From Deltaproteobacteria bacterium (GTDB taxonomy: Bacteria; Bdellovibrionota_C; UBA2361; SZUA-149; JADLFC01), in contig JADLFC010000121.1 of NCBI GenBank assembly GCA_020845775.1, forward strand, positions 1-60,684: a DNA stretch of 60,684 nt, given 5' to 3'. Shown piece after piece: positions 8,756 to 60,684 of the stretch. Numbering within the stretch: the stretch's first letter is position 1; each line of letters opens with the position of its first letter. The position numbers and the translations under genes are program-made. Under the pieces are notes generated by a model, which made no database searches, was not told the DNA's origin, and saw only the letters and a program-made list of their open reading frames with translations.

Positions 8756-8880
8756 TATACCATTTACAAAAAGGATTTTTGTAAATGGTATAAACAGCAA
8801 GTGCGCAAGCACTTGCCAATAAACAACAAATACCGTTTCCAAAAAGTAAAATATTTAACTTACTTTTTGGAAACGGTATA
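8756..8880 (-). repeat. Triple-palindrome intergenic repeat, copy 2 (inverted orientation)
   Basis: Its reverse complement is identical to copy 3 except for 1 nt at the left terminus. It sits in the divergent region between the lipoprotein gene (-) and lpxD (+). Confidence 0.92.
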
Positions 8881-22410: not shown

Positions 22411-22426
22411 AAAATTCTCCGCACTA

Positions 22427-22549
22427 GACCGTTTCCAAAAAGTAAGTTAAATATTTTACTTTTTGGAAACGGTATTTGTTGTTTATTGGCAAGTGCTTGC
22501 GCACTTGCTGTTTATACCATTTACAAAAATCCTTTTTGTAAATGGTATA
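22427..22549 (+). repeat. Triple-palindrome intergenic repeat, copy 3
   Basis: Same three palindromes as the other copies. The left terminus reads tagaccg instead of tataccg. It begins 17 nt from the start codon of the MBL-fold gene and ends ...aaatggtataat. Confidence 0.92.
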
Positions 22550-42987: not shown

Positions 42988-43036
42988 ACTCGCAGCGAGA
43001 AACGATGAAGAATAACGGCACACATGGTAACAGAAA

Positions 43037-43798: not shown

Positions 43799-43842
43799 AA
43801 TGACCGCTAGAGAGCATCTTACAGTAAGGAGAGATAACAACT

Positions 43843-44631: not shown

Positions 44632-44640
44632 TGTAAAGCC

Positions 44641-45687
44641 ATGCAACTTGCACGAAAGACTTCGCTCATGCACTTGCTTTTTAAAAGATTGCTTCGCCCT
44701 AGATGCTGCTGTCTCGCAGTTGCTCTTGTTGTGATATATATGCCGTTTTGGGCGATCGCCGAGGAAGGTAGTTCGCAGGCGAATTCGGAACGACCCACGC
44801 TAGTAATTAACAATGTAGTAACCATCAATGCCAGTGAACTCACCTTAGGCGACGTGGGACAAATAAAATCAGCAAGCGTCACCGACAATGATTTGGCAAA
44901 TAGGCTACGCGCTGTGAAGCTCGGCCCTGCTCCGACTCCGGGCTCCTCCCTAGTTTTGTTAGGCGATAACATTCTTCAGTCCATCAACAGTAGCGGAATA
45001 GACAGCGAAACAATAGGCTATTTCATTCCAGCTAAGGTGAGAGTAGAAAGGTCCGGACGGCAGCTCTTGCCTGCTGAAGTCTTAGACATTGTGCGAGCTA
45101 AGTTACACATTAACGGCAAGAGCGATTTAAGAGTGCGCGAGGTTAAATTTCCCGAGAGCTACATAATACCGAATGGCCCAACGCGCATTGCGGTAGAAGC
45201 ATTGGGGCAACCATCGGGCGGCATAGTACCTTTAAGGATTGAAGTTTACGTTGCCGAACAAAGCGCGGCTCGCTTTCTCGCTTCGGCGGTCGTCGATTAT
45301 TGGACGGATATTCCCGTACTAGCGAGAGACATCGAGAGAGGAATGCTAATTGAGCATGACGATCTGCAAATAGTCAGGCTTAACCGAAATAAGTTTGCAG
45401 ATAATATTGTAGACAATTCGGAATCCATAATAGGCCGTCGGGCAAAGGCACATTTGCGAGCTGGCGAGCCTCTGCGAAGCAACCTCATAGATATCCCAGC
45501 AGTTGTTTCCAAAGGGGCTCGAATCTCGGTAATCTACAATGCTGCCGGCATAAATGCGTCCGTTACGGCAATAGCCATGGAGGATGGATTAAAAGGTGAG
45601 ACCATCCGCTTTAGGAATGATAGCTCGAACAAAGTAATTAAAGCAATTGTGAAGAGTCCACAGCATGCGGAGGTGGCAAATCCATGA
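44641..45687 (+). CDS. flgA: Flagellar P-ring assembly chaperone FlgA (long form)
   Basis: Position between flgG and flgH. C-terminal SAF-like region (RRAKAHLRAGEPLRSNLI ... VVSKGARISVIY ... ALEDG-like MEDGLKGETIRFRN). 348 aa is longer than typical. Confidence 0.75.
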   Translation: MQLARKTSLMHLLFKRLLRPRCCCLAVALVVIYMPFWAIAEEGSSQANSERPTLVINNVVTINASELTLGDVGQIKSASVTDNDLANRLRAVKLGPAPTPGSSLVLLGDNILQSINSSGIDSETIGYFIPAKVRVERSGRQLLPAEVLDIVRAKLHINGKSDLRVREVKFPESYIIPNGPTRIAVEALGQPSGGIVPLRIEVYVAEQSAARFLASAVVDYWTDIPVLARDIERGMLIEHDDLQIVRLNRNKFADNIVDNSESIIGRRAKAHLRAGEPLRSNLIDIPAVVSKGARISVIYNAAGINASVTAIAMEDGLKGETIRFRNDSSNKVIKAIVKSPQHAEVANP

Positions 45688-46550
45688 ATACTGCACGGCT
45701 TTTTTTATCGCTTTCACTGCTCTTGTCAAGTTGTGCCTACAACCGGGCACCGGCAGAGCGCATAGTGCCAGCAGAGGAATTTGCTAAGGCAATGCACTCA
45801 GGCAGCGCAAGCGATTTTTCCATATTCAAGGTAAGCAACCGCGAGGCAGCTCCAACAGCACTCCTAGAAAAAGCCCGGTTCAATTTAGACTCCTCCAGTC
45901 TGCAACCACCGCCGCCGCCACTACCTCCGGCGAGCACACTGCCACCGGGTAGCTCCTCGCCATATCACAACGGCCAAATGCGAGCGAATCCTTCTCTTTG
46001 GCCGGATGAAGGACAGGCTACATCGCTATTTCGCGATTTTAGAGCCTATCAGCCCATGGACATCATTACGATACTTATCAAAGAATCCCAAGAAGGCAAA
46101 AAGCTTGCAGAAACTGAGACTGAAGGGAAGTTCTCACTTGCTGCTGGCATAAAGGAATTATTCGGTCTGGAAACGAAACATTGGACAGCAAACAATACTA
46201 GCTTAGATCCAGAAGAACTCATCAATGCTACGACCGATATAAAATTCGAGGGCGATGGTGAGACCAAGCGTTCGGGGACATTGTCAGGAACCGTATCGGC
46301 AGTCATTATGGAAGTACTTCCTAACGGCTTGCTCAGAATAGAAGGAACAAAGATTATATCAGTTAACAGCGAGGAGGAGATACTCGTTATTAGCGGACTA
46401 GTCCGAACACAAGATGTCAATGCAAATAATCAGGTTCCGTCGAACAAGATTGCCAACATGAGGATAGATTTTTATGGACGCGGCATAGTGACCGAGCAAC
46501 AAAAGCCAGGGTGGGGCGCGAGAATATTTGAATTCGTTTGGCCATTTTAA
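45684..46550 (+). CDS. flgH: Flagellar L-ring lipoprotein FlgH
   Basis: Lipobox LLLSSCAY. Conserved FlgH core (RAYQPMDIITILI, GTLSGTVSAVIMEVLPNGLLRIEGTK, ISGLVRTQDV). Contains a Pro-rich insert. Confidence 0.88.
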   Translation: MNTARLFLSLSLLLSSCAYNRAPAERIVPAEEFAKAMHSGSASDFSIFKVSNREAAPTALLEKARFNLDSSSLQPPPPPLPPASTLPPGSSSPYHNGQMRANPSLWPDEGQATSLFRDFRAYQPMDIITILIKESQEGKKLAETETEGKFSLAAGIKELFGLETKHWTANNTSLDPEELINATTDIKFEGDGETKRSGTLSGTVSAVIMEVLPNGLLRIEGTKIISVNSEEEILVISGLVRTQDVNANNQVPSNKIANMRIDFYGRGIVTEQQKPGWGARIFEFVWPF

Positions 46551-46553
46551 AAT

Positions 46554-47684
46554 ATGACACTTGCAATAAGGAAAGCTAAGGGGAAGCTACGAACTGTTTT
46601 TGTTCTAGCAATCGCTGTTTTGCTGCTGACGACAGCCAACACTGCGCTTGCCGCGCGACTAAAGGACGTAGCCGACATAGAGGGAGTGCGTGGCAATCAC
46701 TTGGTGGGCTTCGGAATTGTAGTAGGTTTGCAGGGGACGGGGGATCAAAAGAGCGCCTTTACTAACCAAAGCATTGCCAACTTAATGGAGCGCCTGGGTC
46801 TTAGGGTCGACGTGAAGGAAATAAGCAAACTCGGAAATACTGCTGCCGTTATTGCCACTGCAGAGTTGCCGCCGTTTGCGCGACCTGGATCAAAAATCGA
46901 CGTTACGTTATCTTCTGTTGGCAACGCATCTACATTGCAGGGCGGAACTTTGCTAATGACACCTCTTAGGGGCGCAGATGGCAAAGTATATGCCGTTTCG
47001 CAAGGGCCAATATCCTTGGGAGGCTTTGTAATCCAAGGAGATGGAGACTCGACACAAAAGAACCATCCCACTGTTGCGCGAATTGCTAAAGGTGCGACCG
47101 TTGAAAGGGCAATCCCATTTGACTTGTTTTCTAGCGGTTCCGTTCGCATAGTGCTGAGAGAACCAGATTTTGTCACAGTAACTCGAGTTCAGGACGCAGT
47201 GAACAGGTTTGTCGGCATTGGAAGAGCCAAAGCTATAGATAGCGCAAGTGTGCTCCTTCCATTAGACGAGCTAACTGCTAAAGCACCGATACATCTAATC
47301 GCTAGATTAGAAGAACTTGAAATCGATCCCGACCTCCCGGCACGAGTGGTAATAAACGAGCGGACTGGAACGATAATTATGGGAGAAAGCGTAAGGGTAT
47401 CTACGGTGGCGCTAGCGCACGGAAACCTAAACATTACGATTTCTTCCGAAACACAAGTCTCGCAACCAAATGCTTTTGGCCAGGGAGCAACGGCCATAGT
47501 TGAGCAACAGGACATTGCAGTTGCAGAGGATAGTGGACAGCTAACTATCGTCAAGGAATCGGTAAGTCTTGGCGAGCTCGTAACCGCACTTAACAGCCTG
47601 GGGGCAACGCCTAGAGATTTAATAGCTATCTTCCAAGCTTTAAAGAAAGCAGGAGCGCTCCATGCGGAGCTAGTGGTGATGTAG
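46554..47684 (+). CDS. flgI: Flagellar P-ring protein FlgI
   Basis: 376 aa. RLKDVADIEGVRGNHLVGFGIVVGLQGTGD and C-terminal ATPRDLIAIFQALKKAGALHAELVVM. Confidence 0.93.
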   Translation: MTLAIRKAKGKLRTVFVLAIAVLLLTTANTALAARLKDVADIEGVRGNHLVGFGIVVGLQGTGDQKSAFTNQSIANLMERLGLRVDVKEISKLGNTAAVIATAELPPFARPGSKIDVTLSSVGNASTLQGGTLLMTPLRGADGKVYAVSQGPISLGGFVIQGDGDSTQKNHPTVARIAKGATVERAIPFDLFSSGSVRIVLREPDFVTVTRVQDAVNRFVGIGRAKAIDSASVLLPLDELTAKAPIHLIARLEELEIDPDLPARVVINERTGTIIMGESVRVSTVALAHGNLNITISSETQVSQPNAFGQGATAIVEQQDIAVAEDSGQLTIVKESVSLGELVTALNSLGATPRDLIAIFQALKKAGALHAELVVM

Positions 47685-47699
47685 CAAGGAATTACATCT

Positions 47700-48056
47700 A
47701 TGTCTAAAATTGAGGCACTTTCTGCCGCTGATTCAGCCTCTATAGCAATGCTATCTCAAGGGACCGCGTCTCTTGAAAAGGCAAAAGTGCTGGCAAATCA
47801 AGCAAGTAGCAAAGAGGCTGAAGTTGAAAAGGCCGCTAGCGATTTTGAGGCCCTATTATTGCACCAGATGTTTAAGGTTATGTGGGAGACGGTTGAAACC
47901 ACGGGACTTTTTGGAGAAAATTCCAACGAAGGGCAAATATATCGGGATATGCTGAATCAGGCGATTGCCGAATCCGCATCCCAAGGAAAAGGCATAGGGG
48001 TTAAAGATATGCTAAGAAAAGAACTCACTAAGGCCAATAAAGCATCTGAACGATAA
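47700..48056 (+). CDS. flgJ: Rod-binding protein (FlgJ N-terminal domain only, no muramidase domain)
   Basis: 118 aa. AASDFEALLLHQMFKVMWET plus a downstream MLNQAIAESASQGKGIG pattern of the Rod_binding domain. It occupies the flgJ slot after flgI. Confidence 0.75.
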   Translation: MSKIEALSAADSASIAMLSQGTASLEKAKVLANQASSKEAEVEKAASDFEALLLHQMFKVMWETVETTGLFGENSNEGQIYRDMLNQAIAESASQGKGIGVKDMLRKELTKANKASER

Positions 48057-48158
48057 CTCAGTATAGGTTATTTGTTAAGCAAACCTAGGCATAACTATTA
48101 TTAGAGCAAATCTATGCTATAATTAACTTGATAACCTAGTAGCTACGGAGAGACGAAG

Positions 48159-48470
48159 ATGAGAATAAGCGACATTTTTAGAAGACATAGCCTAGACCAA
48201 ACTACAGCTAAAAATAGCGCACAACAGGCGAAGGACGAGCGCGAGAGTTCTAACAGTAGCGCGATCGCTAGTAACTCTGACGATAGAGTTAGCATCTCAC
48301 CTATGGCGAGGCAGTTTGCACAAATTTCTAAAATCGTTGCGGAAGACGAAGAAAAACAAAGTTCAAGAGTTGAAGACTTAAAGAGAAAAATTGCTGCGGG
48401 TGAATACTCCGTATCGAGTTCAGATGTAGCTAACTCAATTTTATCTTTTGCCAAAGACGAAAACGCTTAA
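48159..48470 (+). CDS. flgM: Anti-sigma-28 factor FlgM
   Basis: 103 aa. C-terminal RVEDLKRKIAAGEYSVSSSDVANSILSF. Followed by a flgN-like gene with a TAATG overlap. Confidence 0.75.
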   Translation: MRISDIFRRHSLDQTTAKNSAQQAKDERESSNSSAIASNSDDRVSISPMARQFAQISKIVAEDEEKQSSRVEDLKRKIAAGEYSVSSSDVANSILSFAKDENA

Positions 48471-48973
48471 TGGATCCGTTTAAGAACTTGCTCCATTGCT
48501 TAAAGGCCGAACTTACAAAACAAGAGGAATTCTTGCGGCTTCTCACAAAGGAGCGAACGGCCATAGTAAAATGCGACACAGCGGAATTAGAGAGCACTAA
48601 CGTAAAAAAACTTGACCTCATTAATGCCGCGCAAGAGCTGGAGAAAAAACGAAACACTATTATCTCCTCACTTCTGTCGAGTGAGCAAACGCTCGAACAG
48701 ATTAAACTTTCGGAGATCGTCACGAAGTGCCCCTCAGTGGGAACTCAAAGAGAACTCGATAAAATTCGAAGCGATTTAAGAAATATCGTATCGGCAGTCT
48801 GCGCGCTCAACGCAGAAAATGCCGACTTAATTAAGAATTCACTTGGACTAGTAACTTCGACTCTGGCAATTGTGCAATGTGCGCCGGGTGGCGATTTGCC
48901 AACATACAGTAAGGAGGGCAAACTCTCTAGTCACGAAGAGACTTCTCTAAAACGCAGCAGAACCAGTGCCTAG
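48470..48973 (+). CDS. flgN: FlgN-like flagellar export chaperone
   Basis: 167 aa, helical. LLHCLKAELTKQEEFLRLLTKERTAIVKCDTAELESTNVKKLDLINAAQELEKKR fits the FlgN pattern. Positioned between flgM and flgK. Confidence 0.6.
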   Translation: MDPFKNLLHCLKAELTKQEEFLRLLTKERTAIVKCDTAELESTNVKKLDLINAAQELEKKRNTIISSLLSSEQTLEQIKLSEIVTKCPSVGTQRELDKIRSDLRNIVSAVCALNAENADLIKNSLGLVTSTLAIVQCAPGGDLPTYSKEGKLSSHEETSLKRSRTSA

Positions 48974-49144
48974 CCATTATAATTAGGCAGCGATTCATGC
49001 AGACTAATTTTCCCCGCTAGCAGGCAAATATTTTCCTCCACCATAATTAATACCTCGCAATCTAACGTCCGGCATTAGACAGCACACGGTCTAACTCCCC
49101 GTACATAATGCCTTTTCTAATTCGCTTGTCAATTCAACAGTAAA

Positions 49145-49160
49145 TTGCACACCTCTTGCA
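49145..49160 (+). promoter_or_regulatory. Sigma-54-like promoter candidate upstream of flgK (TTGCAC-N5-TTGCA)
   Basis: Exact -24/-12 spacing, but the first G of the GG dinucleotide is a T. It lies 64 nt upstream of the flgK ATG. Confidence 0.3.
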
Positions 49161-49223
49161 ATAAAACGAGAAGGGATTCCCGCACGACTATAAACTGCAC
49201 AGATTAGAAGGAACTAGTAAATC

Positions 49224-50873
49224 ATGGGATCTGGAGGAATAAGCAGTCTCTTAAATATAAGCAAAAGTTCGCTCTTTGCTCAGACTCAAGCAATTCGAGT
49301 CATTGGCGACAACATCGCTAACGCCAATGTCGAGGGATATAGCAGAAGACGCGCTAATATTGAGACACTTACTACTAGCGCAGACGCCAACAGCATTTCT
49401 CTAGGTAGTGGTGTAAACGTTAGAACGATTTCCCGCCTCGTAGACAAGTTCTTAAGCAGTCAGATTCACTCAGCGACTTCGGATCGGGCAAAAAGTGAAA
49501 TACGCGATGAATTACTATCGCGTGCCGAAGGCCCTTTTTCCCTAGAAGACACGGTAGGGCAAATTGGTTTCCAATTATCGGAATTCTTTAGTTCTCTAGA
49601 CGACCTATCTGCCGATCCGGCAAACATGAGCTTGCGACAAAATGTCATCGAACAGGGCGCAAGCCTTTCACAAGCTATTCAGTCTTCGTACGAATCTATA
49701 GCGAGTTTACAAAGGGAGGCCGACAATCGAATTGGATTAGTAATTGGCGAAGTTAACAGCATGACCGCCGACATTGCTGAGTTAAATACGCAAATAAGCA
49801 CACTGGAAATCTCGGAGCAGGAAGCTTTAGCTCTGCGAGACAAAAGAGACCAACTATTAAAGGAACTATCCGAAAAGCTTTCGATTAACTCAGTAGAAAA
49901 TGGCGATGGAACTGTCTTGGTTTCACTTAGCAACGGATTTACGCTTGTAAATGGCTCAAGCGCTAGAGCTTTGGACTTCACTGCGTCGCCAAGTTTTGCT
50001 CCCGTTAGCGGCTATCCACCTGGCTTAGACAACAGCGCCCTTCGCCACATAGTTTATGACTACGACTCTAGCTCGACGACGGAACATATAGATTTGACAA
50101 GCGTCATCGGAACCGCTGGCGGCGAACTCGGTGGCCTACTAAGCCTTCGCGGTATTCAGTCCGATACCGACACTTCCGCCTTTGATGCAAGCGGCGACTT
50201 GGTATTAATTGGCGCTCGCATAGAAGCGGTCGCAAGAGATCTACTAGTGCGCTTCAACCAAACCTACCTAGGCCCGGTGGACGAAGATCCAGTCACAGCG
50301 GGATTTCAAGCTTCCTCAGTAGATCTTAACGGCAATAATCCCTCTCCATTTGGACTTTTTACCGTTGCTGGGGCAAGCGATGACGATGCCGACGGTCTCC
50401 CCAGTATTGCGGACCTTCAAGCATCCACCAGCTTCGTCGGATATGCTAGCGCAATTTCGTTTAACATATCCGATCCGGCTAATATCGCCGCGGCAATTGA
50501 CTTGGATACAGCGACGAGCGGCTCCACTCCATTTGGCGATGCAGACAACACAAATATTAGAAATTTGGTCGCGCAAAGAAATGTAGAAACTAACTACAGC
50601 GTGGGAGCATTCTCGGCAACTGCTACACTTGAAGACCTTTACAACACGACAGTAACCTATGTTGGAAGCCAAGCTAGTTCTGCTGCTACAAATTTAGCAA
50701 TTAACACAACCAGAGAAGAACAGGTTCTTGCATTGCAGCAAAACACCTCAGGGGTAAGTCTCGATGAAGAATTCGCTCAGTTAATCAAATTTCAAAGAGC
50801 CTACGAGGGATCTGCCCGAATGATTCAAGTTGGAGACAACCTATTACAAGAACTAGTTCGGTTACTTGGGTAA
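49224..50873 (+). CDS. flgK: Flagellar hook-associated protein 1 FlgK
   Basis: 549 aa. N-terminal LLNISKSSLFAQTQAIRVIGDNIANANVEGYSRR and C-terminal GVSLDEEFAQLIKFQRAYEGSARMIQVGDNLLQELV. Confidence 0.88.
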   Translation: MGSGGISSLLNISKSSLFAQTQAIRVIGDNIANANVEGYSRRRANIETLTTSADANSISLGSGVNVRTISRLVDKFLSSQIHSATSDRAKSEIRDELLSRAEGPFSLEDTVGQIGFQLSEFFSSLDDLSADPANMSLRQNVIEQGASLSQAIQSSYESIASLQREADNRIGLVIGEVNSMTADIAELNTQISTLEISEQEALALRDKRDQLLKELSEKLSINSVENGDGTVLVSLSNGFTLVNGSSARALDFTASPSFAPVSGYPPGLDNSALRHIVYDYDSSSTTEHIDLTSVIGTAGGELGGLLSLRGIQSDTDTSAFDASGDLVLIGARIEAVARDLLVRFNQTYLGPVDEDPVTAGFQASSVDLNGNNPSPFGLFTVAGASDDDADGLPSIADLQASTSFVGYASAISFNISDPANIAAAIDLDTATSGSTPFGDADNTNIRNLVAQRNVETNYSVGAFSATATLEDLYNTTVTYVGSQASSAATNLAINTTREEQVLALQQNTSGVSLDEEFAQLIKFQRAYEGSARMIQVGDNLLQELVRLLG

Positions 50874-50892
50874 CAAGACAGGGGGTTAACAA

Positions 50893-51885
50893 ATGCGAGT
50901 TACAGACGCTCAAATAACTAGATCCTTTATTGCGCAAATTTATAGGCAACGAAACGCTTTAATTGACGTTCAACGAGAAGTGTCGAGCGGTATTCGCGTC
51001 GCTAATCCTAGCGATGATCCGGCCCATGCTGGCACTATAGCTCAATTTCAAAGCTCTCTTCAGCGCTTTGAGCAACACAAAGAACGGATGTCGTACGTAA
51101 CAAATCTGCTGCAGCAGCAGGAGAGCATTCTTGCCTCCTCTGGCGACCTTCTTATTAGGGCGAGAGAACTAGCTCAACAGGGCGCTAATGAGACTCTTTC
51201 CGAGGAACAACGCAGGACTCTAGGAGATGAGGTATTTCAGTTAAGAGATGCTCTGGTATCCCTTGCAAACTCTAAAGTACAAGGTCGATATATTTACGGT
51301 GGAGCCGATGACGACGACCCGCCATTTGATTCCGCAACATACGTAAACCCCGCTACGGGCGCGGCGAGTGAAAGATGGGTATTTGATTCTGCCGACGCCG
51401 GGCAAGACGTTACTAGGGAAGTGAGCATAACTGATAGTTTAAGCGTGAGAGTTAGCACTTCTGGCCAGGACGTGTTTGAGAACTCGATTGCAGCACTTGA
51501 GCGCCTAGGTCGTGCACTAACAGGATATCGCACAGAGCCCGAAGACCTCTCGACATTGCCAGATGGAAACGGCGTAGCCTTTAACTTTCCCGCCGAATAC
51601 CAAGAACAAACGGAGGATATCTTAGAAGCACTCGATCTAGTCGAAAGCGGAGCCGACGAGGTTAAAACCGAGAGAGCTAGTATCGGCAGTAGGCTCTCGA
51701 GAGTCCAAGTAGCTTCCGAAATCATGGATATCGCAACAATCGACACCCAAACGGCCAGGCAGGCTGTCCAGGACGCAGACATCTTTGAAGCAGCCTCAAA
51801 GCTCGCCAACTTTCAAACTAACCTCGAAGCAACTTTGGCCAGCGGCGCTCAACTTTCGCGCCTTTCGCTGATGGATTTCATCTAA
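50893..51885 (+). CDS. flgL: Flagellar hook-associated protein 3 FlgL
   Basis: 330 aa. MRVTDAQITRSF..., flagellin-like N and C termini (DADIFEAASKLANFQTNLEATLASGAQLSRLSLMDFI). Confidence 0.85.
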   Translation: MRVTDAQITRSFIAQIYRQRNALIDVQREVSSGIRVANPSDDPAHAGTIAQFQSSLQRFEQHKERMSYVTNLLQQQESILASSGDLLIRARELAQQGANETLSEEQRRTLGDEVFQLRDALVSLANSKVQGRYIYGGADDDDPPFDSATYVNPATGAASERWVFDSADAGQDVTREVSITDSLSVRVSTSGQDVFENSIAALERLGRALTGYRTEPEDLSTLPDGNGVAFNFPAEYQEQTEDILEALDLVESGADEVKTERASIGSRLSRVQVASEIMDIATIDTQTARQAVQDADIFEAASKLANFQTNLEATLASGAQLSRLSLMDFI

Positions 51886-51934: not shown

Positions 51935-53653
51935 ATGTATCGTTTTACTAGAAATTGCACTAGCCTCTTTTGTATACTGTTTCCAAAAAGTAAGTTAAAT
52001 ATTTTACTTTTTGGAAACAGTATTTGTTGTTTATTGGCAAGTGCTTACGCACTTGCTGTTTATAGCATTTACAAAAATCCTTTTTGTAAATGCTATAAAT
52101 TTTGCTGCCTTGCGCTAGTGGTTCTTGTTTGCCCGTCACTTGCACTAGCTGGCAAAGGAGAAATAACAGCCGTAGAAACTAGCATCGATCTCGGTGCAAA
52201 CGGCGATGCAACAGTAATGTATTACGTAAGCTGGAGGGTTTTATCAGGCGAATTTCACGGTTTTTACTTTAGCGGAAACGACCGCCTCGAAATCAGTGGC
52301 TTCCTCGATCACAGTTATGCTCTCGACTCATTTGGGAAAAGGCACAAGTTAGATATTTCGTGGGAGGGCCGCGACAAGTGGGATATCGTACTTGCTAACG
52401 GCGAGGGTGTTTCATCGGGCGATGTTCATTTCTTTCTCTTCTTTCGCAGTAATTTTAGCCGAGCGGGGTATTTAGCCCACACTAAGGCGGGGGACAAGGA
52501 CTTAGCGGTGTTTAATTGGGCTCCCGTCGAATGGGATGAAGTTGCTCCAAAGAGCCATTATACCCTACGCATTATATTTCCACATCAAGTATCAAGTGGA
52601 GTTAATTTGCGTTCTTATGTAGATAACAGGCAATTACTCCTAACCGAACCCTGGGTAAATGAGAACTACGCGATTGACTTTTTTAGGGGTGGAACAAATA
52701 ACGATGGGCTGGGAGTTCTCTTTCACAAGGAGAATCCGGGCAATCACTTTCACATGAGAGTCCAATTTTACCTGCCGTATGAGTGGTTTAATTTTCCACA
52801 AACATATGCCTCAAAACTCACTTCTGAGTTACCTCTGCATAACAAAGTTGCATTAGGAGTTGGATTTGCATTAGTTGGCATGGGATTTATTTTTGTATTT
52901 CTTGGCAAGCAACACTCCCTATTAGCAGCCCACAAGGGTTTAAATGACATCCGTTGGGAGAACATAGATTGGACCCCACCAAAACTCGAGCTATCGACAT
53001 TTCGCATAAAGGGGAAAGTGTGCAAGGATCTCTCTCCCCTCGAAGCAGCGTTCTACCTGGAAATTCCTTTGAAGCGCATTTTAAGCGGGATGCTTAGCTC
53101 CCTTGAGGAAGAAGGGTTTTTGAAAGTAATCTCCCAGTCGCCTCTTAAAGTGCAAACACTTAGGAGCAGTTATGAAGGCACTGGAACTGAGTACAGCGGA
53201 TACGAGCAATATTTCTTAAACACTCTACACGACGGAGACTTTTCGCAGGACGAGCTAGAGTCTCTGATGAATACCATCATCAAAAACATTCAAAAGAAAG
53301 CTTGGGACTGCGACATAGAAGCTACGAAAGCCTATTATGGCACTTTAGTGCACGATGCCATCGGAAAGAACACTGCTCAGGATATATTCCTTCAAGATGA
53401 GGCATGGCACCAGTGGTACCACCGATCCTCTTACCGACGAGATTTGTCGCGCGATCGAGCTAATCCATACCGCTATGAGCATGTTATGCCGGTTACCGTG
53501 GATCATTTGCTACAAGGGGTCGGAGTAAATGCCGATATGACTGCTTGTCACGATGCCTGTCATTCGGCTTGTCACTCCGCTTGCCATTCCGCCTGCCATT
53601 CAGCCTGCCACTCGGCTTGCCATTCAGCTTGCGTAAGTGGAGGTTCACATTGA
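51935..53653 (+). CDS. DUF2207-like single-pass membrane protein ending in a Cys-His tetrapeptide repeat, ACHD-(ACHS)x6-AC
   Basis: Signal-like KFCCLALVVLVCPSLALA|GKG. The ecto-domain GEITAVETSIDLGANGDATVMYYVSWRVLSGEFHGFYF and the post-TM DLSPLEAAFYLEIPLKRILSGMLSSLEEEGFLKVIS resemble DUF2207. TM at about residues 305-324. The C-terminal 38 aa are MTACHDACHSACHSACHSACHSACHSACHSACVSGGSH. The real start is uncertain because codons 13-54 are repeat copy 4. Confidence 0.7.
   Translation: MYRFTRNCTSLFCILFPKSKLNILLFGNSICCLLASAYALAVYSIYKNPFCKCYKFCCLALVVLVCPSLALAGKGEITAVETSIDLGANGDATVMYYVSWRVLSGEFHGFYFSGNDRLEISGFLDHSYALDSFGKRHKLDISWEGRDKWDIVLANGEGVSSGDVHFFLFFRSNFSRAGYLAHTKAGDKDLAVFNWAPVEWDEVAPKSHYTLRIIFPHQVSSGVNLRSYVDNRQLLLTEPWVNENYAIDFFRGGTNNDGLGVLFHKENPGNHFHMRVQFYLPYEWFNFPQTYASKLTSELPLHNKVALGVGFALVGMGFIFVFLGKQHSLLAAHKGLNDIRWENIDWTPPKLELSTFRIKGKVCKDLSPLEAAFYLEIPLKRILSGMLSSLEEEGFLKVISQSPLKVQTLRSSYEGTGTEYSGYEQYFLNTLHDGDFSQDELESLMNTIIKNIQKKAWDCDIEATKAYYGTLVHDAIGKNTAQDIFLQDEAWHQWYHRSSYRRDLSRDRANPYRYEHVMPVTVDHLLQGVGVNADMTACHDACHSACHSACHSACHSACHSACHSACVSGGSH
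51973..52097 (+). repeat. Triple-palindrome intergenic repeat, copy 4
   Basis: Differs from copy 5 only by a compensatory pair in hairpin A (tatacTg.../...cAgtat). It shares the tatagc...gctata variant of hairpin C with copy 5. It lies inside the 5' end of the long track ORF 51935..53653. Confidence 0.92.
53543..53632 (+). repeat. 12-nt tandem coding repeat (7.5 units) encoding A-C-H-(D/S)
   Basis: gct tgt cac gat / gcc tgt cat tcg / gct tgt cac tcc / gct tgc cat tcc / gcc tgc cat tca / gcc tgc cac tcg / gct tgc cat tca / gct tgc. Apart from the first unit's Asp codon, the units differ only at synonymous third positions. Confidence 0.95.
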
Positions 53654-53665
53654 GGTGACAGTTCT

Positions 53666-55051
53666 ATGCTGACGAGAGTTTTTAAACGGTTTACTAAGCC
53701 TTCTAAGCAGAACCCTAACCTTGACGAAGTGATTAGCGGCATTAACCTTTCTTGGGTCGATGAGTTCATAGAAAATGTTCGGCCATACGTTTTCGTTAGA
53801 ACAGAAGATAACATTTTAATAAAGCGCCCCAACAACGCGGTAAAGTTAAATCCATCGGGCGCTAAATTTTTGAAATTCCTATTGGAGGGCCATAAGCTAC
53901 ATGAACTCCTTAGGGCGGTTGATTCCGATGTAGCTAAATTAAAACAGCTTGAAGAATTCCTGCGAGCCGTTAGATTGCATTTGGAAAACAAGCTGGATCC
54001 TCTTGTCCATATGCCCGCAGTGGAGATCCTTCCTTTCGACATGAGTTTTAGTGAGTATCCAGTTTTGTCAGAAATCGCGCTTACGTATCGCTGTAACCTT
54101 CGATGTAAATTCTGCTACGCTGGCTGCAACTGCACGACTAATCCAGTAGGCAGCAAGCATGAACTCAGTTCGGCAAACATAAAGAAGGTTATTCATAAAC
54201 TCTTTAACGATGCAAAAGTGCCGTCAGTTAGTTTTACAGGCGGAGAGCCTACGCTCGTGAGCGAGCTTTTCGACTACATCTCCTACGCAAAAACGCTTGG
54301 AATGAGAGTAAACCTAATTACAAATGGCTCTCGCATTACAGAAAAATACGCTCAAGCCCTAAAGGAAAGCGGGTTGGACTCGGCTCAAGTAAGCGTTGAA
54401 GGAGTCAATGCTGATACTCACAATGAAATTGTGCAGGCGAGCTCATTTGCTAAATCCGTTGCTGCAGTGCGCCATTTAAGGGAAGCTGGGATATTTACGC
54501 ATTCCAATACAACTATCAATCGAATAAACTTAGCAGAATGCCTAGAGTTCCCGCGTTTCGCAAGAGACATCTTAGGTTGCAATCGCTTTAGTATGAATCT
54601 CATGATCCCCACCGGAAGCGGTGAGCTTAACGATGAGATGGTAGTGCCGTATTCTGAGATAGGGCCATACATAGAGCGCATTCGGGACGAAAGCGAAAAA
54701 GTTGGCGTGGAATTCATGTGGTACTCGCCGGTTCCCATGTGTATGTTTAACTCGATTGTAAATGGACTTGGGAACAAGGGTTGCAGTGCCTGCGACGGGC
54801 TTATTTCTATCGGCGCTAATGGAGCACTTTTACCCTGCGCTTCATATGACGAAAATTTGGGGGATTTTCTTTCCGAAGATTTTTCGACCTTGTGGAAGTC
54901 ATCTAGATCAGCGCAATTTCGCAAGAAAGATTTAGCGCACGACGCTTGCAAAAAGTGCGAGCACTTTCACATATGTAACGGCGCATGTCCCCTTTACTGG
55001 CGGAATCAAGGATACGAGGAGCTCACAAAAACTTTAGGAGACACTAATTGA
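53666..55051 (+). CDS. Radical SAM / SPASM-domain peptide-maturase-like enzyme with N-terminal RRE-like extension
   Basis: CNLRCKFC (Cx3Cx2C, residues 143-150, nt 54092..54115), FTGGEPTL, and additional Cys ligands (GCSACDG, LLPCASY). The C-terminal CKKCEHFHICNGAC is the SPASM Cx2Cx5Cx3C motif. GAGG SD 8 nt upstream of the ATG, 12 nt after the stop of the repeat-tailed gene. Confidence 0.9.
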   Translation: MLTRVFKRFTKPSKQNPNLDEVISGINLSWVDEFIENVRPYVFVRTEDNILIKRPNNAVKLNPSGAKFLKFLLEGHKLHELLRAVDSDVAKLKQLEEFLRAVRLHLENKLDPLVHMPAVEILPFDMSFSEYPVLSEIALTYRCNLRCKFCYAGCNCTTNPVGSKHELSSANIKKVIHKLFNDAKVPSVSFTGGEPTLVSELFDYISYAKTLGMRVNLITNGSRITEKYAQALKESGLDSAQVSVEGVNADTHNEIVQASSFAKSVAAVRHLREAGIFTHSNTTINRINLAECLEFPRFARDILGCNRFSMNLMIPTGSGELNDEMVVPYSEIGPYIERIRDESEKVGVEFMWYSPVPMCMFNSIVNGLGNKGCSACDGLISIGANGALLPCASYDENLGDFLSEDFSTLWKSSRSAQFRKKDLAHDACKKCEHFHICNGACPLYWRNQGYEELTKTLGDTN

Positions 55052-56025
55052 TGCTTGCAACAATGTCGCTCCCTACATCTAAGTCGGCAATTGTGGTATT
55101 TCGTCTTTTTCCTTCACTTGGTTACGCCAAGCGAGTAATCCTGTCATTCTTGGCTATTGTTGCAGGTTTCTCACTTCAGGTTCTAACTATGTATTTTTTT
55201 CCTGGAATTGTTTTAGTGGCTGTCGGAAATCTATTTCTCTTAACTAAGGGTTACGACAACAACGTCGATTTTGGTTCCTTTAAACCAAACTCCCAGTGGC
55301 AGCGAGCTACCAGGGAAAAACTCCTAGAAATCAAATCGCTTAGCAAAAAAATAAAGATTTGGGACAGAAGTCTTATCGATATTACCAATGGCTTTGGACT
55401 GCTGACTTTCTTGATAATCGCCGGGATCTGTGGATATGCTTACCTATATGCAATAGAGGAACGTATCATTTGGATTCAATTATTAACTGTCAATCTAGCA
55501 CTCCTATTTCTTCCACATTGGATAACAGGCGTGCGGACGATTTTAACGCAAGCAAACCTGATTCTAAAAGTAGATTGCTTTCTTGAATTGCTGAAAAAGA
55601 CAGCTGGAGAGATACCGAACGATGAAATAAGCGTTTCACTCTTAGTCGAAGAAGACAAAGACAAGGCCTTGCCTTCAGACGTTAAGCTTATTTTAAAGCC
55701 TAAGAAATCACATCCGGATTTTCTGGGTTTACAAGCACAAATTGCGCTAAATGTCGTTCAAGGCTCGTCCTACATTTACTTTTATGTAGTCCTCTTAGCT
55801 AAGAAAGGCTATGGCCTAAATGACTGGGGCACGACATCTTATGCCGCTCTCTCAAACACTATAACTGAATTTTCCTATCAGGATGACGTTGAGGTGCTAG
55901 TAATTAGGCAAAAAACGACTAAAACTTCTGGCTACTATACAAAACCCAAAGTCGTCACTAGCCTTTTTCTGTCAGGTGCTAACTTTGCTAATATTGCTTG
56001 CGAAAAACCCTACTCGCAACATTGA
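55048..56025 (+). CDS. Hypothetical 4-TM membrane protein, translationally coupled to the radical SAM gene
   Basis: The ATG at 55051 overlaps the rSAM stop (TGATG); the track start is TTG at 55048. Two hairpins of TM helices, then a soluble domain of about 150 aa. No recognisable motif. Confidence 0.6.
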   Translation: MMLATMSLPTSKSAIVVFRLFPSLGYAKRVILSFLAIVAGFSLQVLTMYFFPGIVLVAVGNLFLLTKGYDNNVDFGSFKPNSQWQRATREKLLEIKSLSKKIKIWDRSLIDITNGFGLLTFLIIAGICGYAYLYAIEERIIWIQLLTVNLALLFLPHWITGVRTILTQANLILKVDCFLELLKKTAGEIPNDEISVSLLVEEDKDKALPSDVKLILKPKKSHPDFLGLQAQIALNVVQGSSYIYFYVVLLAKKGYGLNDWGTTSYAALSNTITEFSYQDDVEVLVIRQKTTKTSGYYTKPKVVTSLFLSGANFANIACEKPYSQH

Positions 56026-56095: not shown

Positions 56096-57760
56096 CTAGG
56101 CGCAGGTCTTTCTACCTTTTTTCCCCTTACACCTCCCAGAACAGCACTCGGCATTAGTTGTGCATGACTCGCCTTTCGCCTTTAATGTGCACCCCGTGCA
56201 GACATTTAGACTTTCATCACAAGCCTGTCCAACGCACGGATTGCTGCCGGGCTGGCAATCGCCACTTACGCATAACTCAGCGCCATTGCAAAATAGTCCG
56301 TCATCGCATTCAGCATTTGCAGTGCATCCTCCAGTCGAAGGATCCAAAAACTCTGCAACCTGACTGTAATAAGCAGCCAATGCTCCATCTACAGTTGCAT
56401 TGGAAACTGAGTCGCATACGTCATTGCAGTTATACCCACAGCAACCGGAAAGCTGCCCAACAACCTCGCCGTTTGCATTGACTACTGGCGAACCGCTACT
56501 TCCACCATCTATAGCTCCGTCTATATCTCTACTATAAATGCGATCTCCCCTAGGCCATTCCCAGCAGGTAGCTGCTGTCGTGCTTACCTGATGATGCGAA
56601 TAAACCTGTGGGCCAAAATTTGGATTACTCACGCGATACAAATTTGCTCCATTAGAGAAAGCAATAGCCGACGCATTCCAACCCAAAAACACGGCTCCAA
56701 TTGGAAGGCCACCGTTACCTAGCTTAAGCAAAGTAAAGTCTGCATCTGCCCCAGTCGCTAACACTGTAGCGCCAGTTGTGTATGGCGCTGGGTTAACGGG
56801 ACAAGTTCCGTTACAGACATCTGTGGTGTAATTAAAGTAAGTCTCAAGTGTGCTATTGCTTGTACTCAAACAATGATTAGCAGTGAGAAACAACTTTTCT
56901 TGAGTGCTATCATTCGTATCGGCAATAAGCCCTCCTGTGCAACTATAAATGTAAAACCCAGCAATCCATTCCATCTTCGCCACTGCTCGCGCTGCATTCG
57001 CAGCTGGGCCGAGGTCAGCACAGTTAGCATCAATTACGCAATCCTCATTTCCACATTGTCCGGACGACCATTCGGACAGCTCTTTAGAGTTAAGAAAATT
57101 CCTGCCAATATAACCTAAGTCGCTAAGGGTAAATTTAACTTTCTTCAAATCCTCTTTAGTTGGGAGCGTTTGAAACTTTACAACAACACTTATGCGTTCA
57201 GAGAAAATAGCGCCAGTCCAAAAATCCCCATCCCCATTCGGACCTTTAGCCTCATAAGGCCCTCGAACATCTCCACCTCTGCTAAAGACGTAAAGCTTGA
57301 CACCATCAGGCAAAGAAAAATCGACAAAATGCAATCGCAATGCCTGAGCTTCTGGCGATTTAATTGACGCCGCCCAAATTAGTCCGCCGCCCTTAGTTTG
57401 GCGAATCACGCCAGCATTAGGTTGACCATCAGCCAATCCCGCAATGCTAATTAAAGTAGGAATAGACTTTACCAACCCAACGCGTAAAGGCACTCCACCT
57501 CGCGGCTGTGGTTTTGCTAACTCACTTCTCTCTTCCTCAGTTAGCGTCACAGTGACTGGCACATTATCAATATCCCTTGGGAAATCAGCCGATAGGGAAG
57601 AAAAAAGCTCAGCCTGTCTTACCGTATGCGCCTTTTCATCCAATCCGTTCTTAACAACCTCCGGTGAGTTGCTAAAAGTCGACTGCCGCTCAGCAAAAGC
57701 CGAGGCATTGATGCCCAACAAAAAACAAACTAATATCAAGAATTTAATAGACCTTTTCAT
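56096..57760 (-). CDS. Secreted trypsin-like (S1-type) serine protease with Cys-rich C-terminal module
   Basis: Signal peptide MKRSIKFLILVCFLLGINASAFA preceded by an AGGAG SD, so I place the start at 57760 rather than the track's 57832. Catalytic triad context LTANHC / DFTLLKL / GGSSGSPVV. The C-terminal ~90 aa contain 20 Cys. Confidence 0.8.
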   Translation of the reverse strand: MKRSIKFLILVCFLLGINASAFAERQSTFSNSPEVVKNGLDEKAHTVRQAELFSSLSADFPRDIDNVPVTVTLTEEERSELAKPQPRGGVPLRVGLVKSIPTLISIAGLADGQPNAGVIRQTKGGGLIWAASIKSPEAQALRLHFVDFSLPDGVKLYVFSRGGDVRGPYEAKGPNGDGDFWTGAIFSERISVVVKFQTLPTKEDLKKVKFTLSDLGYIGRNFLNSKELSEWSSGQCGNEDCVIDANCADLGPAANAARAVAKMEWIAGFYIYSCTGGLIADTNDSTQEKLFLTANHCLSTSNSTLETYFNYTTDVCNGTCPVNPAPYTTGATVLATGADADFTLLKLGNGGLPIGAVFLGWNASAIAFSNGANLYRVSNPNFGPQVYSHHQVSTTAATCWEWPRGDRIYSRDIDGAIDGGSSGSPVVNANGEVVGQLSGCCGYNCNDVCDSVSNATVDGALAAYYSQVAEFLDPSTGGCTANAECDDGLFCNGAELCVSGDCQPGSNPCVGQACDESLNVCTGCTLKAKGESCTTNAECCSGRCKGKKGRKTCA

Positions 57761-57818
57761 ATTTACTCCTCTAAGCTTTGAAAGGTTTATAATGGCACGC
57801 GTATCATAACCAACTGTC

Positions 57819-59225
57819 ATGACTATATACACCCATGCTGCAAATTTGTCGAAAAAGATACTAAATTCTTTAAGTATGCGTGAGGACTGTGCTTTTAATA
57901 GTAGCAGACAGGGCCTTCCGTTAGCAGTATCCTGCCTCTTGGTTCTAGGGTTTTTCTTACGGCTATTTTATCTAAGCTATACTGACTACGATGAGCGGAT
58001 GTATGACGTCACTTTGCCGACGGGACATCTCGACTACATAACTCATGTTGCAACGACTTTGAGCCTTCCGAATCCATTGGAGAGCTGGGAATATCACCAG
58101 CCGCCGCTTTACTATTGTTTGGCAGCAGCTATTTTTAAGATTACTTCTTCTCTCGAATTTTCGCAGCAAGTGTTATCTCTTCAACTCCTGTCACTTGCCT
58201 TTGCCATGATATTTCTCATCGTGGCCGCAAAATGTTTTCATCTGCTTTTTGCCTCTACGCATTCACAAATTCTAGCAAACAGCTTTGTAATATTCTGGCC
58301 TTCGAGCATTTTGCATTCTACGCGCATAGGAAATGACGCCTCTTACTACGCGATTTATAGTATTGGGTTTTACTTTGTTCTAAAATATTTTTTTAGCAAT
58401 AAGCCAACTAATCTCGTAATTGCGTCAATATTTGCTGCTTTATCCACATTGACGAAGGCAAATGGCCTAATATTAGTTTCAATTGTTCTCGCAGCCATGC
58501 TTTTAGCGATCCGCAGGCGAGATATTTGTAAAGACAACTATGGAACTGGAGTTAGTATTTTTGTTATATTATTGCTTGGCGTAGCACTAAGTTTCGGAGA
58601 CAATTTCTACTGGCAGTTGCAGCACGGAGCAAGTGGAACAGATTGGCTCTTAGGCGATTCACTGCGCTTTATGAATCCCGAGCTCAGAATCCGAAATGAT
58701 TTTCTTAATTTTTTTTATTTTGATGTCATCGCTTTTTTGTCTAATCCATTTGCTGACACCTGGCAGGACGAGGCAGGACGACAATATTTCTTAACTACCT
58801 TTTTAAAAACCAGTTTATTTGGAGAGTGGAAATACGCTGATACTCCACCGACATGTAAATACATTGCTCAAGCTATAAGTGCCATGTTGCTATTAATCAT
58901 TCCTTGCACCATCTACGAGTTACTGTGCTTAACGCGAAGGCGCGGGCCTTTTTTTTATCCCATGTTACTAAATATTTTAATCCCTTTTATCTTTATACTC
59001 TGCTATCGCGTAAAGACCTCTGTCGCGCCCGCGAGCGACTTTCGTTACATACTGCCAAGTCTTTTATCTATGGCCTTTTTTTATACTAAAAGAGCCGATG
59101 GATTTGCCCAGGCTGGTTCGAGAGTGGCAACGGTTCTCATGTACTTACTTTTGGCGTTATTTGTAATATTTAGTGCGAGTTTTTTCATTGCTCTAAGCTT
59201 CGAGGCTCCCCGTTCCTCGAGCTAG
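57819..59225 (+). CDS. GT-C-fold membrane glycosyltransferase (ArnT/PMT-like)
   Basis: 468 aa, more than 10 TM. The first-loop acidic motif YTDYDERMYD and HQPPLYYCL resemble the family 39/83 GT-C. Confidence 0.62.
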   Translation: MTIYTHAANLSKKILNSLSMREDCAFNSSRQGLPLAVSCLLVLGFFLRLFYLSYTDYDERMYDVTLPTGHLDYITHVATTLSLPNPLESWEYHQPPLYYCLAAAIFKITSSLEFSQQVLSLQLLSLAFAMIFLIVAAKCFHLLFASTHSQILANSFVIFWPSSILHSTRIGNDASYYAIYSIGFYFVLKYFFSNKPTNLVIASIFAALSTLTKANGLILVSIVLAAMLLAIRRRDICKDNYGTGVSIFVILLLGVALSFGDNFYWQLQHGASGTDWLLGDSLRFMNPELRIRNDFLNFFYFDVIAFLSNPFADTWQDEAGRQYFLTTFLKTSLFGEWKYADTPPTCKYIAQAISAMLLLIIPCTIYELLCLTRRRGPFFYPMLLNILIPFIFILCYRVKTSVAPASDFRYILPSLLSMAFFYTKRADGFAQAGSRVATVLMYLLLALFVIFSASFFIALSFEAPRSSS

Positions 59226-60559: not shown

Positions 60560-60684
60560 TATACCGTTTCCAAAAAGTAAGTTAAATATTTTACTTTTTG
60601 GAAACGGTATTTGTTGTTTATTGGCAAGTGCTTACGCACTTGCTGTTTATAGCATTTACAAAAATCCTTTTTGTAAATGCTATA
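60560..60684 (+). repeat. Triple-palindrome intergenic repeat, copy 5 (ends at window edge)
   Basis: Full 125 nt, 123/125 identical to copy 4. Same tatagc...gctata hairpin C variant. Confidence 0.92.

Follow-up and report, generated by a model that had tools for sequence, protein, structure and literature searches.

A widespread three-gene radical SAM/SPASM cassette with a Cys-His ladder, its candidate substrate, at the end of a DUF2207-like membrane protein

The cassette and its conservation

The 60,684-nucleotide stretch of DNA analysed here (the window; contig JADLFC010000121.1 of assembly GCA_020845775.1, from a Deltaproteobacteria bacterium) carries three consecutive open reading frames (ORFs) on one strand, listed at 51935-53653, 53666-55051 and 55048/55051-56025. 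ORF1 encodes a DUF2207-like membrane protein that ends in a Cys-His tetrapeptide ladder, ORF2 a radical SAM/SPASM enzyme and ORF3 a further membrane protein. A first-pass annotation, made from the letters of the sequence, had described the three as a tightly coupled cassette in which the ladder is the apparent substrate of the enzyme. Apart from the length given for ORF1, its sequence-level statements were confirmed, and its interpretation was supported in each part that computation could address. The features of the cassette are given below, with residues numbered as in the listed frames; AF2 denotes AlphaFold2 models and TM transmembrane.

52034..53653 (start uncertain), + strand: ORF1, DUF2207-like type I membrane protein (ORF listing, homologue alignment)
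52103..52153, + strand: signal-peptide h-region and AxA cleavage site, between FCCLALVVLVCPSLALA and GKGE (alignment of homologues)
52154..52777, + strand: extracytoplasmic beta-sandwich of ORF1, residues 74-281 (AF2 pLDDT >90, Foldseek E 2e-7, PF09972)
52844..52945, + strand: single TM helix of ORF1, residues ~304-337, then a conserved basic K-H/Q-R-S motif (alignment, AF2)
52952..53362, + strand: conserved cytoplasmic domain of ORF1, residues ~340-476 (alignment, AF2)
53456..53545, + strand: pre-tail, leader-like segment of ORF1, NPYRYEHVMPVTVDHLLQGVGVNADMTA (conserved within cassette types)
53546..53650, + strand: Cys-His ladder of ORF1, CHDA-(CHSA)x6-CVSGGSH (translation, comparison of 73 tails)
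53666..55051, + strand: ORF2, radical SAM/SPASM enzyme, 461 aa (ORF listing, Pfam/NCBIfam, homologues)
53744..54040, + strand: N-terminal domain of ORF2, residues 27-125, probable PqqD-type recognition element (conservation, weak matches to such elements)
54080..54655, + strand: radical SAM core of ORF2, C143-x3-C147-x2-C150 and GGEP (Pfam, alignment)
54740..54988, + strand: SPASM domain of ORF2 (Pfam, alignment)
55051..56025, + strand: ORF3, membrane protein, 324 aa (ORF listing, AF2 model)

The junction sequences demonstrate the coupling that had been claimed for the genes. The last codon of ORF1 ends at 53650 and the stop codon occupies 53651-53653; the junction with ORF2 (...cat TGA GGT GAC AGT TCT ATG) has a gap of 12 nt, in which the GAGG at 53652-53655 shares bases with the ORF1 stop codon. 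At the junction of ORF2 with ORF3 (aat TGATG ctt), the ORF2 stop overlaps the ORF3 start, ATG 55051, and the ORF3 length of 324 aa was also given by a separate gene caller. An antisense ORF at 53572-54042 (- strand, 156 aa), which ends in (AEWQ)n, is a reverse-complement shadow of the CHSA repeat and not a gene.

One genome per species was scanned, which yielded 80 loci with ORF2 40-60% identical. These loci span about 22 phylum-level lineages, comprising Desulfobacterota, Calditrichota, Acidobacteriota/Aminicenantes, Gemmatimonadota, Planctomycetota, Bacteroidota, KSB3, Cloacimonetes, Chloroflexota, Actinomycetota, Bacillota, Gammaproteobacteria, Bdellovibrionota, Nitrospirota, Armatimonadota, Omnitrophota, Elusimicrobiota, Verrucomicrobiota/Lentisphaerae, Hydrogenedentes, Sumerlaeota, Fermentibacteria and others. 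An ORF1 homologue lies directly upstream of ORF2 in 72 of the 80 loci and an ORF3 homologue directly downstream in 75, always on the same strand, and most of the misses are contigs that end early. The ORF2 homologues are thus syntenic both with a Cys-periodic tail and with ORF3, as the first-pass reading of the locus had implied. Co-inheritance is demonstrated further by the identities to the window copies, which co-vary among ORF1, ORF2 and ORF3 (rho 0.77-0.84, 54 loci). When all ORFs of at least 90 aa were clustered, no further family occurred in more than 9 of the 80 loci, and no protease or transporter family was conserved; in the absence of a fourth conserved family, the unit consists of exactly three genes. 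Carriage by mobile elements was considered and rejected, as none of 72,556 plasmids or 50,697 phages gave a match to ORF3. A reading as a defence system was likewise rejected, since PADLOC gave only a generic likeness of the ORF2 radical SAM core to pVip and nothing for ORF1 or ORF3.

Translation of ORF1 confirms that the protein ends in the ladder, with 8 Cys between residues 538 and 566 at strict i+4 spacing. Among 73 tails compared, Cys, His and Ala are invariant in each unit, while the third position is Ser, with Gly allowed in the last two units and Asp usual in the first. The number of periodic Cys is 8 in 61 of the 73 tails, 9 in 11 and 6 in one, and the terminus CVSGG[SA]H is kept with minor changes. 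Identity across loci in the 28-residue core of the tail is 97% for amino acids, 76% for nucleotides and 42% for third codon positions. The Ser codons are drawn from both codon boxes, and within the window the 12-nt tandem units are only 81% alike, with synonymous differences. Since amino-acid identity is so high (97%) where third positions are so divergent (42%), these data demonstrate an extreme constraint, that is, strong purifying selection on the sequence and length of the tail rather than repeat slippage. This pattern also effectively refutes the view that the repeat is meaningless low complexity or slippage, or that its neighbourhood is coincidental: although the repeat is tandem at the DNA level with a 12-nt unit, the synonymous differences between units, the fixed copy number and the synteny across about 22 phylum-level lineages all speak against it. 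Four assemblies made independently from this organism share an identical tail, which is present and in frame in relatives, neither absent nor frameshifted.

A search for stand-alone forms with phmmer (40-residue tail against 1.84 billion representative proteins) returned no high-identity match other than at the very C-terminus, either of proteins of 490-840 aa or of fragments, and no clear stand-alone peptide form of the tail was among the proteins searched. Three of the fragments retain the ORF1 cytoplasmic motif, and two calls of 88-102 aa consist of linker and ladder only. The tail is not a member of TIGR04117 ('Cys-Xaa-Xaa-Xaa repeat radical SAM target protein'), which it matched over the tail region only at 12.4 bits (E 0.12) against a cut-off of 50; the profile is 98 positions long, compared with a carrier of ~530 aa. 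The phmmer search also brought up two unrelated proteins with period-4 Cys repeats. In one (P0264, 229 aa) the N-terminus is hydrophobic and resembles a signal peptide, and the C-terminus is (C-H/Y-x-x)~15; in the other (P0245, 1163 aa) a large N-terminal region precedes roughly 100 tandem C-E/Q-x-x units. Ladders of period-4 Cys may be a more general theme.

Architecture of the three proteins

The domain content of ORF2 is demonstrated by Pfam and by the alignment of homologues, which bear out both the motifs and the N-terminal extension of ~110 residues noted at first pass. ORF2 carries CNLRCKFC, GGEP and CKKCEHFHICNGAC (Cx2Cx5Cx3C), matches Radical_SAM PF04055 at E 3.3e-26 with the core beginning at residue 139, and matches SPASM PF13186 at E 1.2e-7, above the gathering score. 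In 24 homologues C143, C147, C150 and GGE(192-194) are invariant, and so are eight Cys of the SPASM region (C359, C373, C376, C391, C428, C431, C437 and C441). This invariant set provides ligands sufficient for two auxiliary [4Fe-4S] clusters. The best 120 of thousands of ORF2 relatives are 55-62% identical over 92-100% of the length, the N-terminal ~110 residues included.

No NCBIfam model (release 20) was passed by ORF2. The highest scores were to AhbD (133.6 bits), NirJ2 (127) and NirJ (103.7), for which the cut-offs are 500-515, followed by GeoRSP (99), PqqE (95, cut-off 381), MftC (91, cut-off 265), rSAM_ACGX TIGR04340 (83.9, cut-off 400), StsB (83) and PapB (73, cut-off 340). For the initial view of ORF2 as a peptide maturase these scores carry a caveat: the best of them, all far below their cut-offs, went to the tetrapyrrole enzymes AhbD and NirJ2 and not to peptide maturases. 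The sulfatase-maturing family anSME (TIGR03942) was not the best match, ranking 25th at 71.7 bits against a cut-off of 349, with no sulfatase gene or CxPxR motif in the cassette. The CXXX-repeat maturase and SCIFF maturase models were absent among the 25 best matches, so that the former would score below 72 bits if its model is in the library at all. When the ORF2 family profile was compared with the PDB, the nearest entry was SkfB (1.7e-25), a thioether-forming enzyme, followed by PqqE, GDGT-MAS, SuiB and anSME.

The N-terminal domain of ORF2 has a set of invariant residues (W30, D32, R45, P55, N56, L61, N62 and G65) and is a probable PqqD-type recognition element (RRE) of the kind found with peptides that are made by ribosomes and modified after translation (RiPPs). 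Such elements are winged-helix domains of about 80-90 aa, built of three strands and three helices. Four weak RRE matches fall on the same stretch, residues 50-105: Pfam PqqD (E 0.11), the NCBIfam lasso PqqD chaperone (E 0.13), K. pneumoniae PqqD by hhalign (E 0.0024, probability 12%, with a PqqD sequence entered by hand) and, in a profile search of the PDB, the RRE protein TfuB1 at E 0.72, among noise. A single-sequence PDB search with the domain gave chance-level matches only (CesA). Across cassette types with different pre-tail motifs, identity of the N-domain is 36.6% between types and 50.5% within, compared with 51% and 57.9% for the core. Such divergence by type fits co-evolution of leader and RRE, and would equally fit a faster-evolving domain.

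For ORF1, homologues were taken from the genome loci; a search with the full-length protein gave 25 matches, mostly partial, as the repeat swamps the word index. The AF2 model, built on a shallower alignment, has a mean pLDDT (per-residue model confidence) of 77. All aligned homologues begin with a short hydrophobic N-terminus ending in A-x-A/G, followed by a conserved GxGEIxFVET. The beta-sandwich that follows resembles oligosaccharyltransferase ribophorin I and the M1 aminopeptidase N-domain (Foldseek, E about 1e-7 to 1e-6). The cytoplasmic domain beyond the TM helix contains a W..DWTPPK motif, a unit that resembles a winged helix (368-408) and a helical portion bearing KAWDCD..AT, and had no match in the Pfam or NCBIfam copies searched. 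After residue 476 there is an aromatic-rich linker and the tail, both modelled at low confidence. Model and alignment thus back the topology first proposed, namely a signal peptide, an ecto-domain, one TM helix and an inside domain of ~240 residues. Because a signal peptide is followed by one TM helix, the tail is placed in the cytoplasm, within reach of an oxygen-sensitive radical SAM enzyme. The segment just before the tail falls into types by locus, with type A (P[VI]xxDH[LIV]xxG) in 39, B1 (C[YF]xG) in 21 and B2 (ACHSACYVH) in 9.

The description of ORF1 as DUF2207-like held for the family and less well for the window protein itself. Of 28 family members, 18 match the DUF2207 N-domain PF09972 at E<1 (best 4.1e-7), and the window protein scores 14.9 bits (E 0.031) against a gathering score of 24.4 bits. 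By these profile scores the ecto-domain appears to be a divergent DUF2207 relative and not a clear member. One ORF1 relative has a precomputed match to PF27846, an accession that was absent from the Pfam copy used. Two members each of the ORF1 and ORF3 families show faint matches (E 0.02-0.1) to DUF2207_C, which in canonical DUF2207 proteins is the TM-rich C-terminal part, and ORF1 and ORF3 together might correspond to a split canonical DUF2207 protein. A published lead connecting DUF2207 with 5-thiohistidine was rejected, as the authors of the source hold the DUF2207 gene to be unrelated to thiohistidine chemistry.

Several ORF1-family variants were also observed. In one (P0256, 843 aa) the extracytoplasmic domain is duplicated and there are 11 CH units, while in another (P0274, 670 aa) there are additional TM segments and the ladder is irregular, with ACVSSCAGSF as its end. 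In Candidatus Vecturithrix (L011:4499-5992), the ladder lacks the SGGSH end and continues into a Gly-rich GGGGSSGGGGASGGW, as in canonical DUF2207 proteins; this homologue can be aligned to the window ORF1 in the cytoplasmic half only.

ORF3 had been described as a protein with four TM helices, and the AF2 model (pLDDT 86.7, predicted TM-score 0.80) agrees, placing them at residues 25-46, 50-61, 114-137 and 140-159 with a cytoplasmic insert between the second and third. It adds a C-terminal cytoplasmic alpha/beta domain of ~150 aa (residues 168-318) with an invariant V.VIRQ.TTK.SGYHT. All relatives of ORF3 are annotated as 'hypothetical', with no Pfam domain. In Foldseek the C-terminal domain resembles YbjN/AmyR (probability 0.98, E 0.016, target-normalised TM-score 0.44), a fold akin to that of the chaperones of type III secretion, proteins that bind extended polypeptides. 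The resemblance is a lead, from a predicted structure, towards holding of the tail or docking of ORF2, and nothing more.

Candidate maturation of the tail and its alternatives

Taken together, we infer a substrate (the tail), a mode of docking between RRE and leader, a type of bond, a role for ORF3 and a physiological function. In the mechanism that we favour, to which we would give a probability of about 50%, the cassette carries out a RiPP-like maturation on a full-length membrane protein without cleavage or export, and the product is a modified Cys/His ladder of fixed length. ORF1 would be exported by its signal peptide, leaving the beta-sandwich outside, one helix through the membrane, and the C-terminal ~240 residues with the (CHxA)7-C ladder inside. 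ORF2 would then dock through its PqqD-like N-domain onto the conserved segment just before the ladder and, using 5'-deoxyadenosyl radical chemistry and two auxiliary clusters, modify each tetrapeptide unit in turn. The likeliest modification would be thioether-type C-S bonds within the chain, linking the sulfur of Cys to carbon in a neighbouring residue. With four helices as its anchor, ORF3 might contribute a chaperone-like domain on the cytoplasmic side, to hold the tail or to recruit ORF2. The tail would be neither cut nor exported; the product is expected to stay attached because there is no conserved protease or exporter, the number of repeats is fixed, and the rest of ORF1 is conserved. 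At the inner membrane face this would leave a rigid, fixed-length element, whose seven imidazoles and any remaining thiols could form a metal-binding or redox-active ladder.

A close precedent is freyrasin, in which PapB installs six thioethers in tandem CX3D motifs of PapA (PMC9413430). As in the cassette, where the RRE is probable, a radical SAM/SPASM enzyme with an RRE is paired with tandem Cys-x3 motifs, and in PapA each motif receives one thioether (PMC9413430). However, PapA is a short, released leader-core peptide with a fixed Asp/Glu acceptor, whereas the ladder forms the end of a ~530-aa membrane protein, has a fixed acidic acceptor nowhere but in unit 1, and is accompanied by no protease or exporter. 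Further thioether precedents are SkfB, CteB/SCIFF and QhpD. The targets of CteB/Tte1186-type maturases resemble the tail in being highly conserved and Cys-rich (with CX3C) and in being paired with a radical SAM/SPASM enzyme, one with an RRE, as is probable for ORF2. SCIFF is a free peptide of ~45 aa in Clostridia and, like the cassette target, is not known to come with a dedicated protease or exporter, which suggests a physiological and not an antibiotic role; the cassette target differs in being tethered to the membrane, rich in His, and spread over many phyla. QhpD, likewise of the radical SAM/SPASM type, introduces several Cys thioethers into a protein subunit, where they are retained structurally and no peptide is released. 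Its target QhpC differs from ORF1 by description, being a small periplasmic subunit with Cys-Asp/Glu links and a cysteine tryptophylquinone cofactor. The CXXX (TIGR04117) and ACGX (TIGR04340) systems of Haft likewise have period-4 Cys repeats beside a radical SAM/SPASM gene, and the ACGX repeat presumably has the same Ala-Cys register as the tail. Both kinds of target stand alone, as a short protein for TIGR04117 (profile length 98) and presumably as short peptides for ACGX, whereas the tail here sits on a membrane protein; to our knowledge these two systems are likewise uncharacterised.

The proposal draws on the kept gene order and the co-varying identities, the constraint on the tail, the complete cysteine set of ORF2 with SkfB as its nearest solved relative, the weak matches to RREs and to TIGR04117, the greater divergence of the N-domain between pre-tail types, the topology and the YbjN/AmyR likeness of ORF3. 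Several points weigh against it. The chemistry of the modification is drawn wholly by analogy. No obvious acceptor (Asp, Thr) is fixed in the units of the tail, and since position 3 of the last two units can be Gly, there is no obligatory beta-carbon acceptor there; the C-alpha (sactionine-type), Ala or His would then be the possible partners. AhbD and NirJ2 outscore the peptide maturases (73-99 bits), all being far below their cut-offs, and each of the RRE matches is non-significant (E 0.0024-0.72). AF2 draws the tail as a helix at low confidence, and the structural match of ORF3, judged from its model, is weak (TM-score 0.44). Finally, two loci, in Cloacimonetes (L006) and Moduliflexus (L013), have ORF2 and ORF3 but no ORF1 or Cys-His tail in the fetched locus (~6 kb upstream), and in L006 an unrelated 151-aa membrane protein lies upstream of ORF2. 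ORF1 may be unlinked or lost in these two genomes.

Some of these same observations would fit an alternative that we consider unlikely, although more probable than the other rivals. Here the tail would be an unmodified metal or iron-sulfur site, with i/i+4 stripes of Cys and His (possibly in a dimer) binding Fe, Zn, Cu or Ni, and ORF2 would act on a lipid, a tetrapyrrole or another small molecule, with ORF1 as its membrane anchor, electron donor or regulator. Invariant Cys, His and Ala with a variable position 3 are what ligand and packing constraints would produce, and a helical tail agrees with such stripes. The best scores of the ORF2 core to the non-peptide AhbD and NirJ, the presence of the lipid-modifying GDGT-MAS among the PDB matches, and the two loci with ORF2 and ORF3 but without an adjacent ORF1 can all be read in the same way. 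However, the scores to the non-peptide families are three- to four-fold under the cut-offs, and the conserved, weakly PqqD-like N-domain points to a peptide substrate. In addition, ORF2 is strictly adjacent to ORF1 and diverges with it, and tandem Cys tetrapeptides beside radical SAM/SPASM genes are a recognised signature of a target (TIGR04117, ACGX).

It is improbable, in our view, that the tail is instead a precursor that is cut off after modification, with ORF1 serving as a giant membrane leader from which housekeeping peptidases would release a peptide or seven Cys-His-derived cofactors or thiols. The precedent lies in PqqE/PqqD/PqqA and MftC/MftB/MftA, which share with the cassette a SPASM enzyme, a near-invariant target and, probably, a PqqD-type recognition domain; the closest characterised relatives of ORF2 include PqqE and MftC, and the tail, at the extreme C-terminus as in MftA, could be a multi-core substrate by virtue of its repeated unit. 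PqqA and MftA, however, are short peptides processed by peptidases into small molecules, whereas no conserved peptidase, lyase or transporter accompanies the cassette. Multi-core precursors usually vary in copy number, whereas that of the ladder is fixed (8 Cys in 61/73, 9 in 11). The other ~500 residues of ORF1 are also conserved, including an extracytoplasmic domain that would be useless in a mere leader, as is the terminal CVSGG[SA]H.

Still less can be said for covalent attachment of a tetrapyrrole, which we regard as very improbable. All Cys but the last precede a His and have a Cys four residues upstream (CX3CH), so the overlapping C-x3-C-H units could be taken as variant heme-c motifs; an AhbD/NirJ-like ORF2 would generate a tetrapyrrole or couple one to the Cys thiols in the cytoplasm, giving a short heme wire tethered to the membrane; the top three NCBIfam matches of ORF2 are indeed radical SAM enzymes of heme b and heme d1. 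These scores (104-134 bits against cut-offs of at least 500) are only ~30 bits over those of peptide maturases, AhbD and NirJ enzymes are not known to have the ~110-aa N-terminal domain, and the weakly PqqD-like character of that domain argues for recognition of a peptide. AhbD and NirJ are the top curated models for the core and SPASM region of ORF2, but no tetrapyrrole genes are conserved near the cassette. Four hemes per 30 residues without distal ligands are sterically implausible, the cytoplasmic site is wrong for the Ccm and Ccs systems, and we know of no radical SAM-dependent heme ligation.

A radical SAM/SPASM enzyme beside a period-4 Cys repeat is already a known kind of system, as CXXX, ACGX, PapB and SCIFF attest. 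What is new is the tether to a conserved DUF2207-like TM protein, the invariant Cys-His-x-Ala unit with a copy number fixed across phyla, the obligatory third membrane protein and the lack of release machinery. A RiPP in the strict sense has a short precursor that sheds its leader and a product that is set free, usually with a protease or exporter in the cluster. The cassette falls outside this definition, having a conserved membrane protein as carrier, no conserved protease or transporter in the 80 loci, and no stand-alone peptide found. Canonical DUF2207 proteins resemble ORF1 in having an extracytoplasmic DUF2207 domain at the N-terminus, apparently a divergent one in ORF1, followed by a TM segment and a C-terminal tail of low complexity, and are usually paired with LemA (PMC12631010). 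ORF1, in contrast, has a single TM helix, a distinct cytoplasmic domain, and a radical SAM enzyme and ORF3 as partners in place of LemA. No description of the cassette was found in NCBIfam release 20, the Pfam copy, PADLOC or the full-text literature searched, in agreement with the earlier statement that a tethered Cys/His ladder is undescribed, and no NCBIfam or Pfam model claims the ORF2 subfamily, the cytoplasmic part of ORF1 or ORF3.

If the proposed maturation is correct, RiPP-type leader-guided radical SAM maturation, as it occurs on small secreted peptides, would extend to a lasting part of a full-size membrane protein. With synonymous divergence saturated over the 73 loci, the tail is among the most conserved repeats across phyla, which implies a precise structure or cofactor. 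More speculatively, and doubtful as we find it, the ladder could be a new class of protein-derived prosthetic structure, in which a chain of unprecedented Cys-His (or Cys-Ala) cross-links forms a linear metal array or redox relay that links an extracytoplasmic sensing or binding domain to cytoplasmic electron or metal chemistry in anaerobes of more than 20 phyla. The cassette also gives a first way into the function of one branch of the DUF2207 superfamily, which is large and uncharacterised, and of two families without a model in the Pfam and NCBIfam copies searched, namely the cytoplasmic domain of ORF1 and ORF3. Cultured hosts (Desulfobulbus alkaliphilus DSM 24258 and Desulfonatronum thioautotrophicum) and a simple tail of 35 residues make the proposal directly testable.

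Flanking genes and the repeat upstream of ORF1

Upstream of the cassette, flagellar genes occupy 42139-51885 (+ strand). FlgI (46554-47684) and FlgN (48470-48973) are confirmed by Pfam, while a 549-aa ORF at 49224-50873 is FlgK-like and a 330-aa ORF at 50893-51885 FlgL-like by sequence and position only. A repeat/terminator element separates these genes from ORF1, and the flagellar adjacency is not conserved in other loci. Downstream and convergent with ORF3, a gene at 56096-57832 (- strand) encodes a trypsin-like peptidase (PF13365) that has a signal peptide and is extended at the C-terminus by a Cys-rich region; it adjoins the cassette in independent assemblies of this organism but not in other loci. 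The glycosyltransferases farther downstream in the window are likewise not conserved with the cassette.

The element upstream of ORF1 is not part of the cassette proper:

51975..52099, + strand: 125-bp intergenic repeat element (five copies in the window, aligned)

The five copies, at 3447-3569 (+), 8751-8876 (-), 22426-22548 (+), 51975-52099 (+) and 60564-60683 (+), are nearly identical. Each has three internal hairpins, one of which is terminator-like with a 20-bp stem and lies at 51975-52022 in the ORF1 copy. The element may be a repetitive extragenic palindrome or miniature inverted-repeat transposable element (REP/MITE-like), or a shared terminator, located between genes. In the 572-aa ORF1 as listed, the copy at 51975-52099 corresponds to codons ~14-55, where the frame stays open by chance, and ORF1 homologues (520-590 aa) can be aligned only from residue ~57 on, at the signal peptide. 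The first-pass annotation had put the carrier at ~570 aa; this is too long, the first ~55 codons being read-through of the repeat, and the listed start (ATG 51935) is probably an artefact. Since there is no in-frame ATG downstream of the repeat, the true start is probably TTG 52034 or GTG 52118, giving a protein of about 510-540 aa. Independent assemblies of this organism end inside the 125-bp repeat, an element at which short-read assemblies break. A translation of the repeat is also found at the N-terminus of a partial 'DUF2723' protein (P0145) from a Deltaproteobacteria metagenome-assembled genome, which indicates that related genomes have the repeat.

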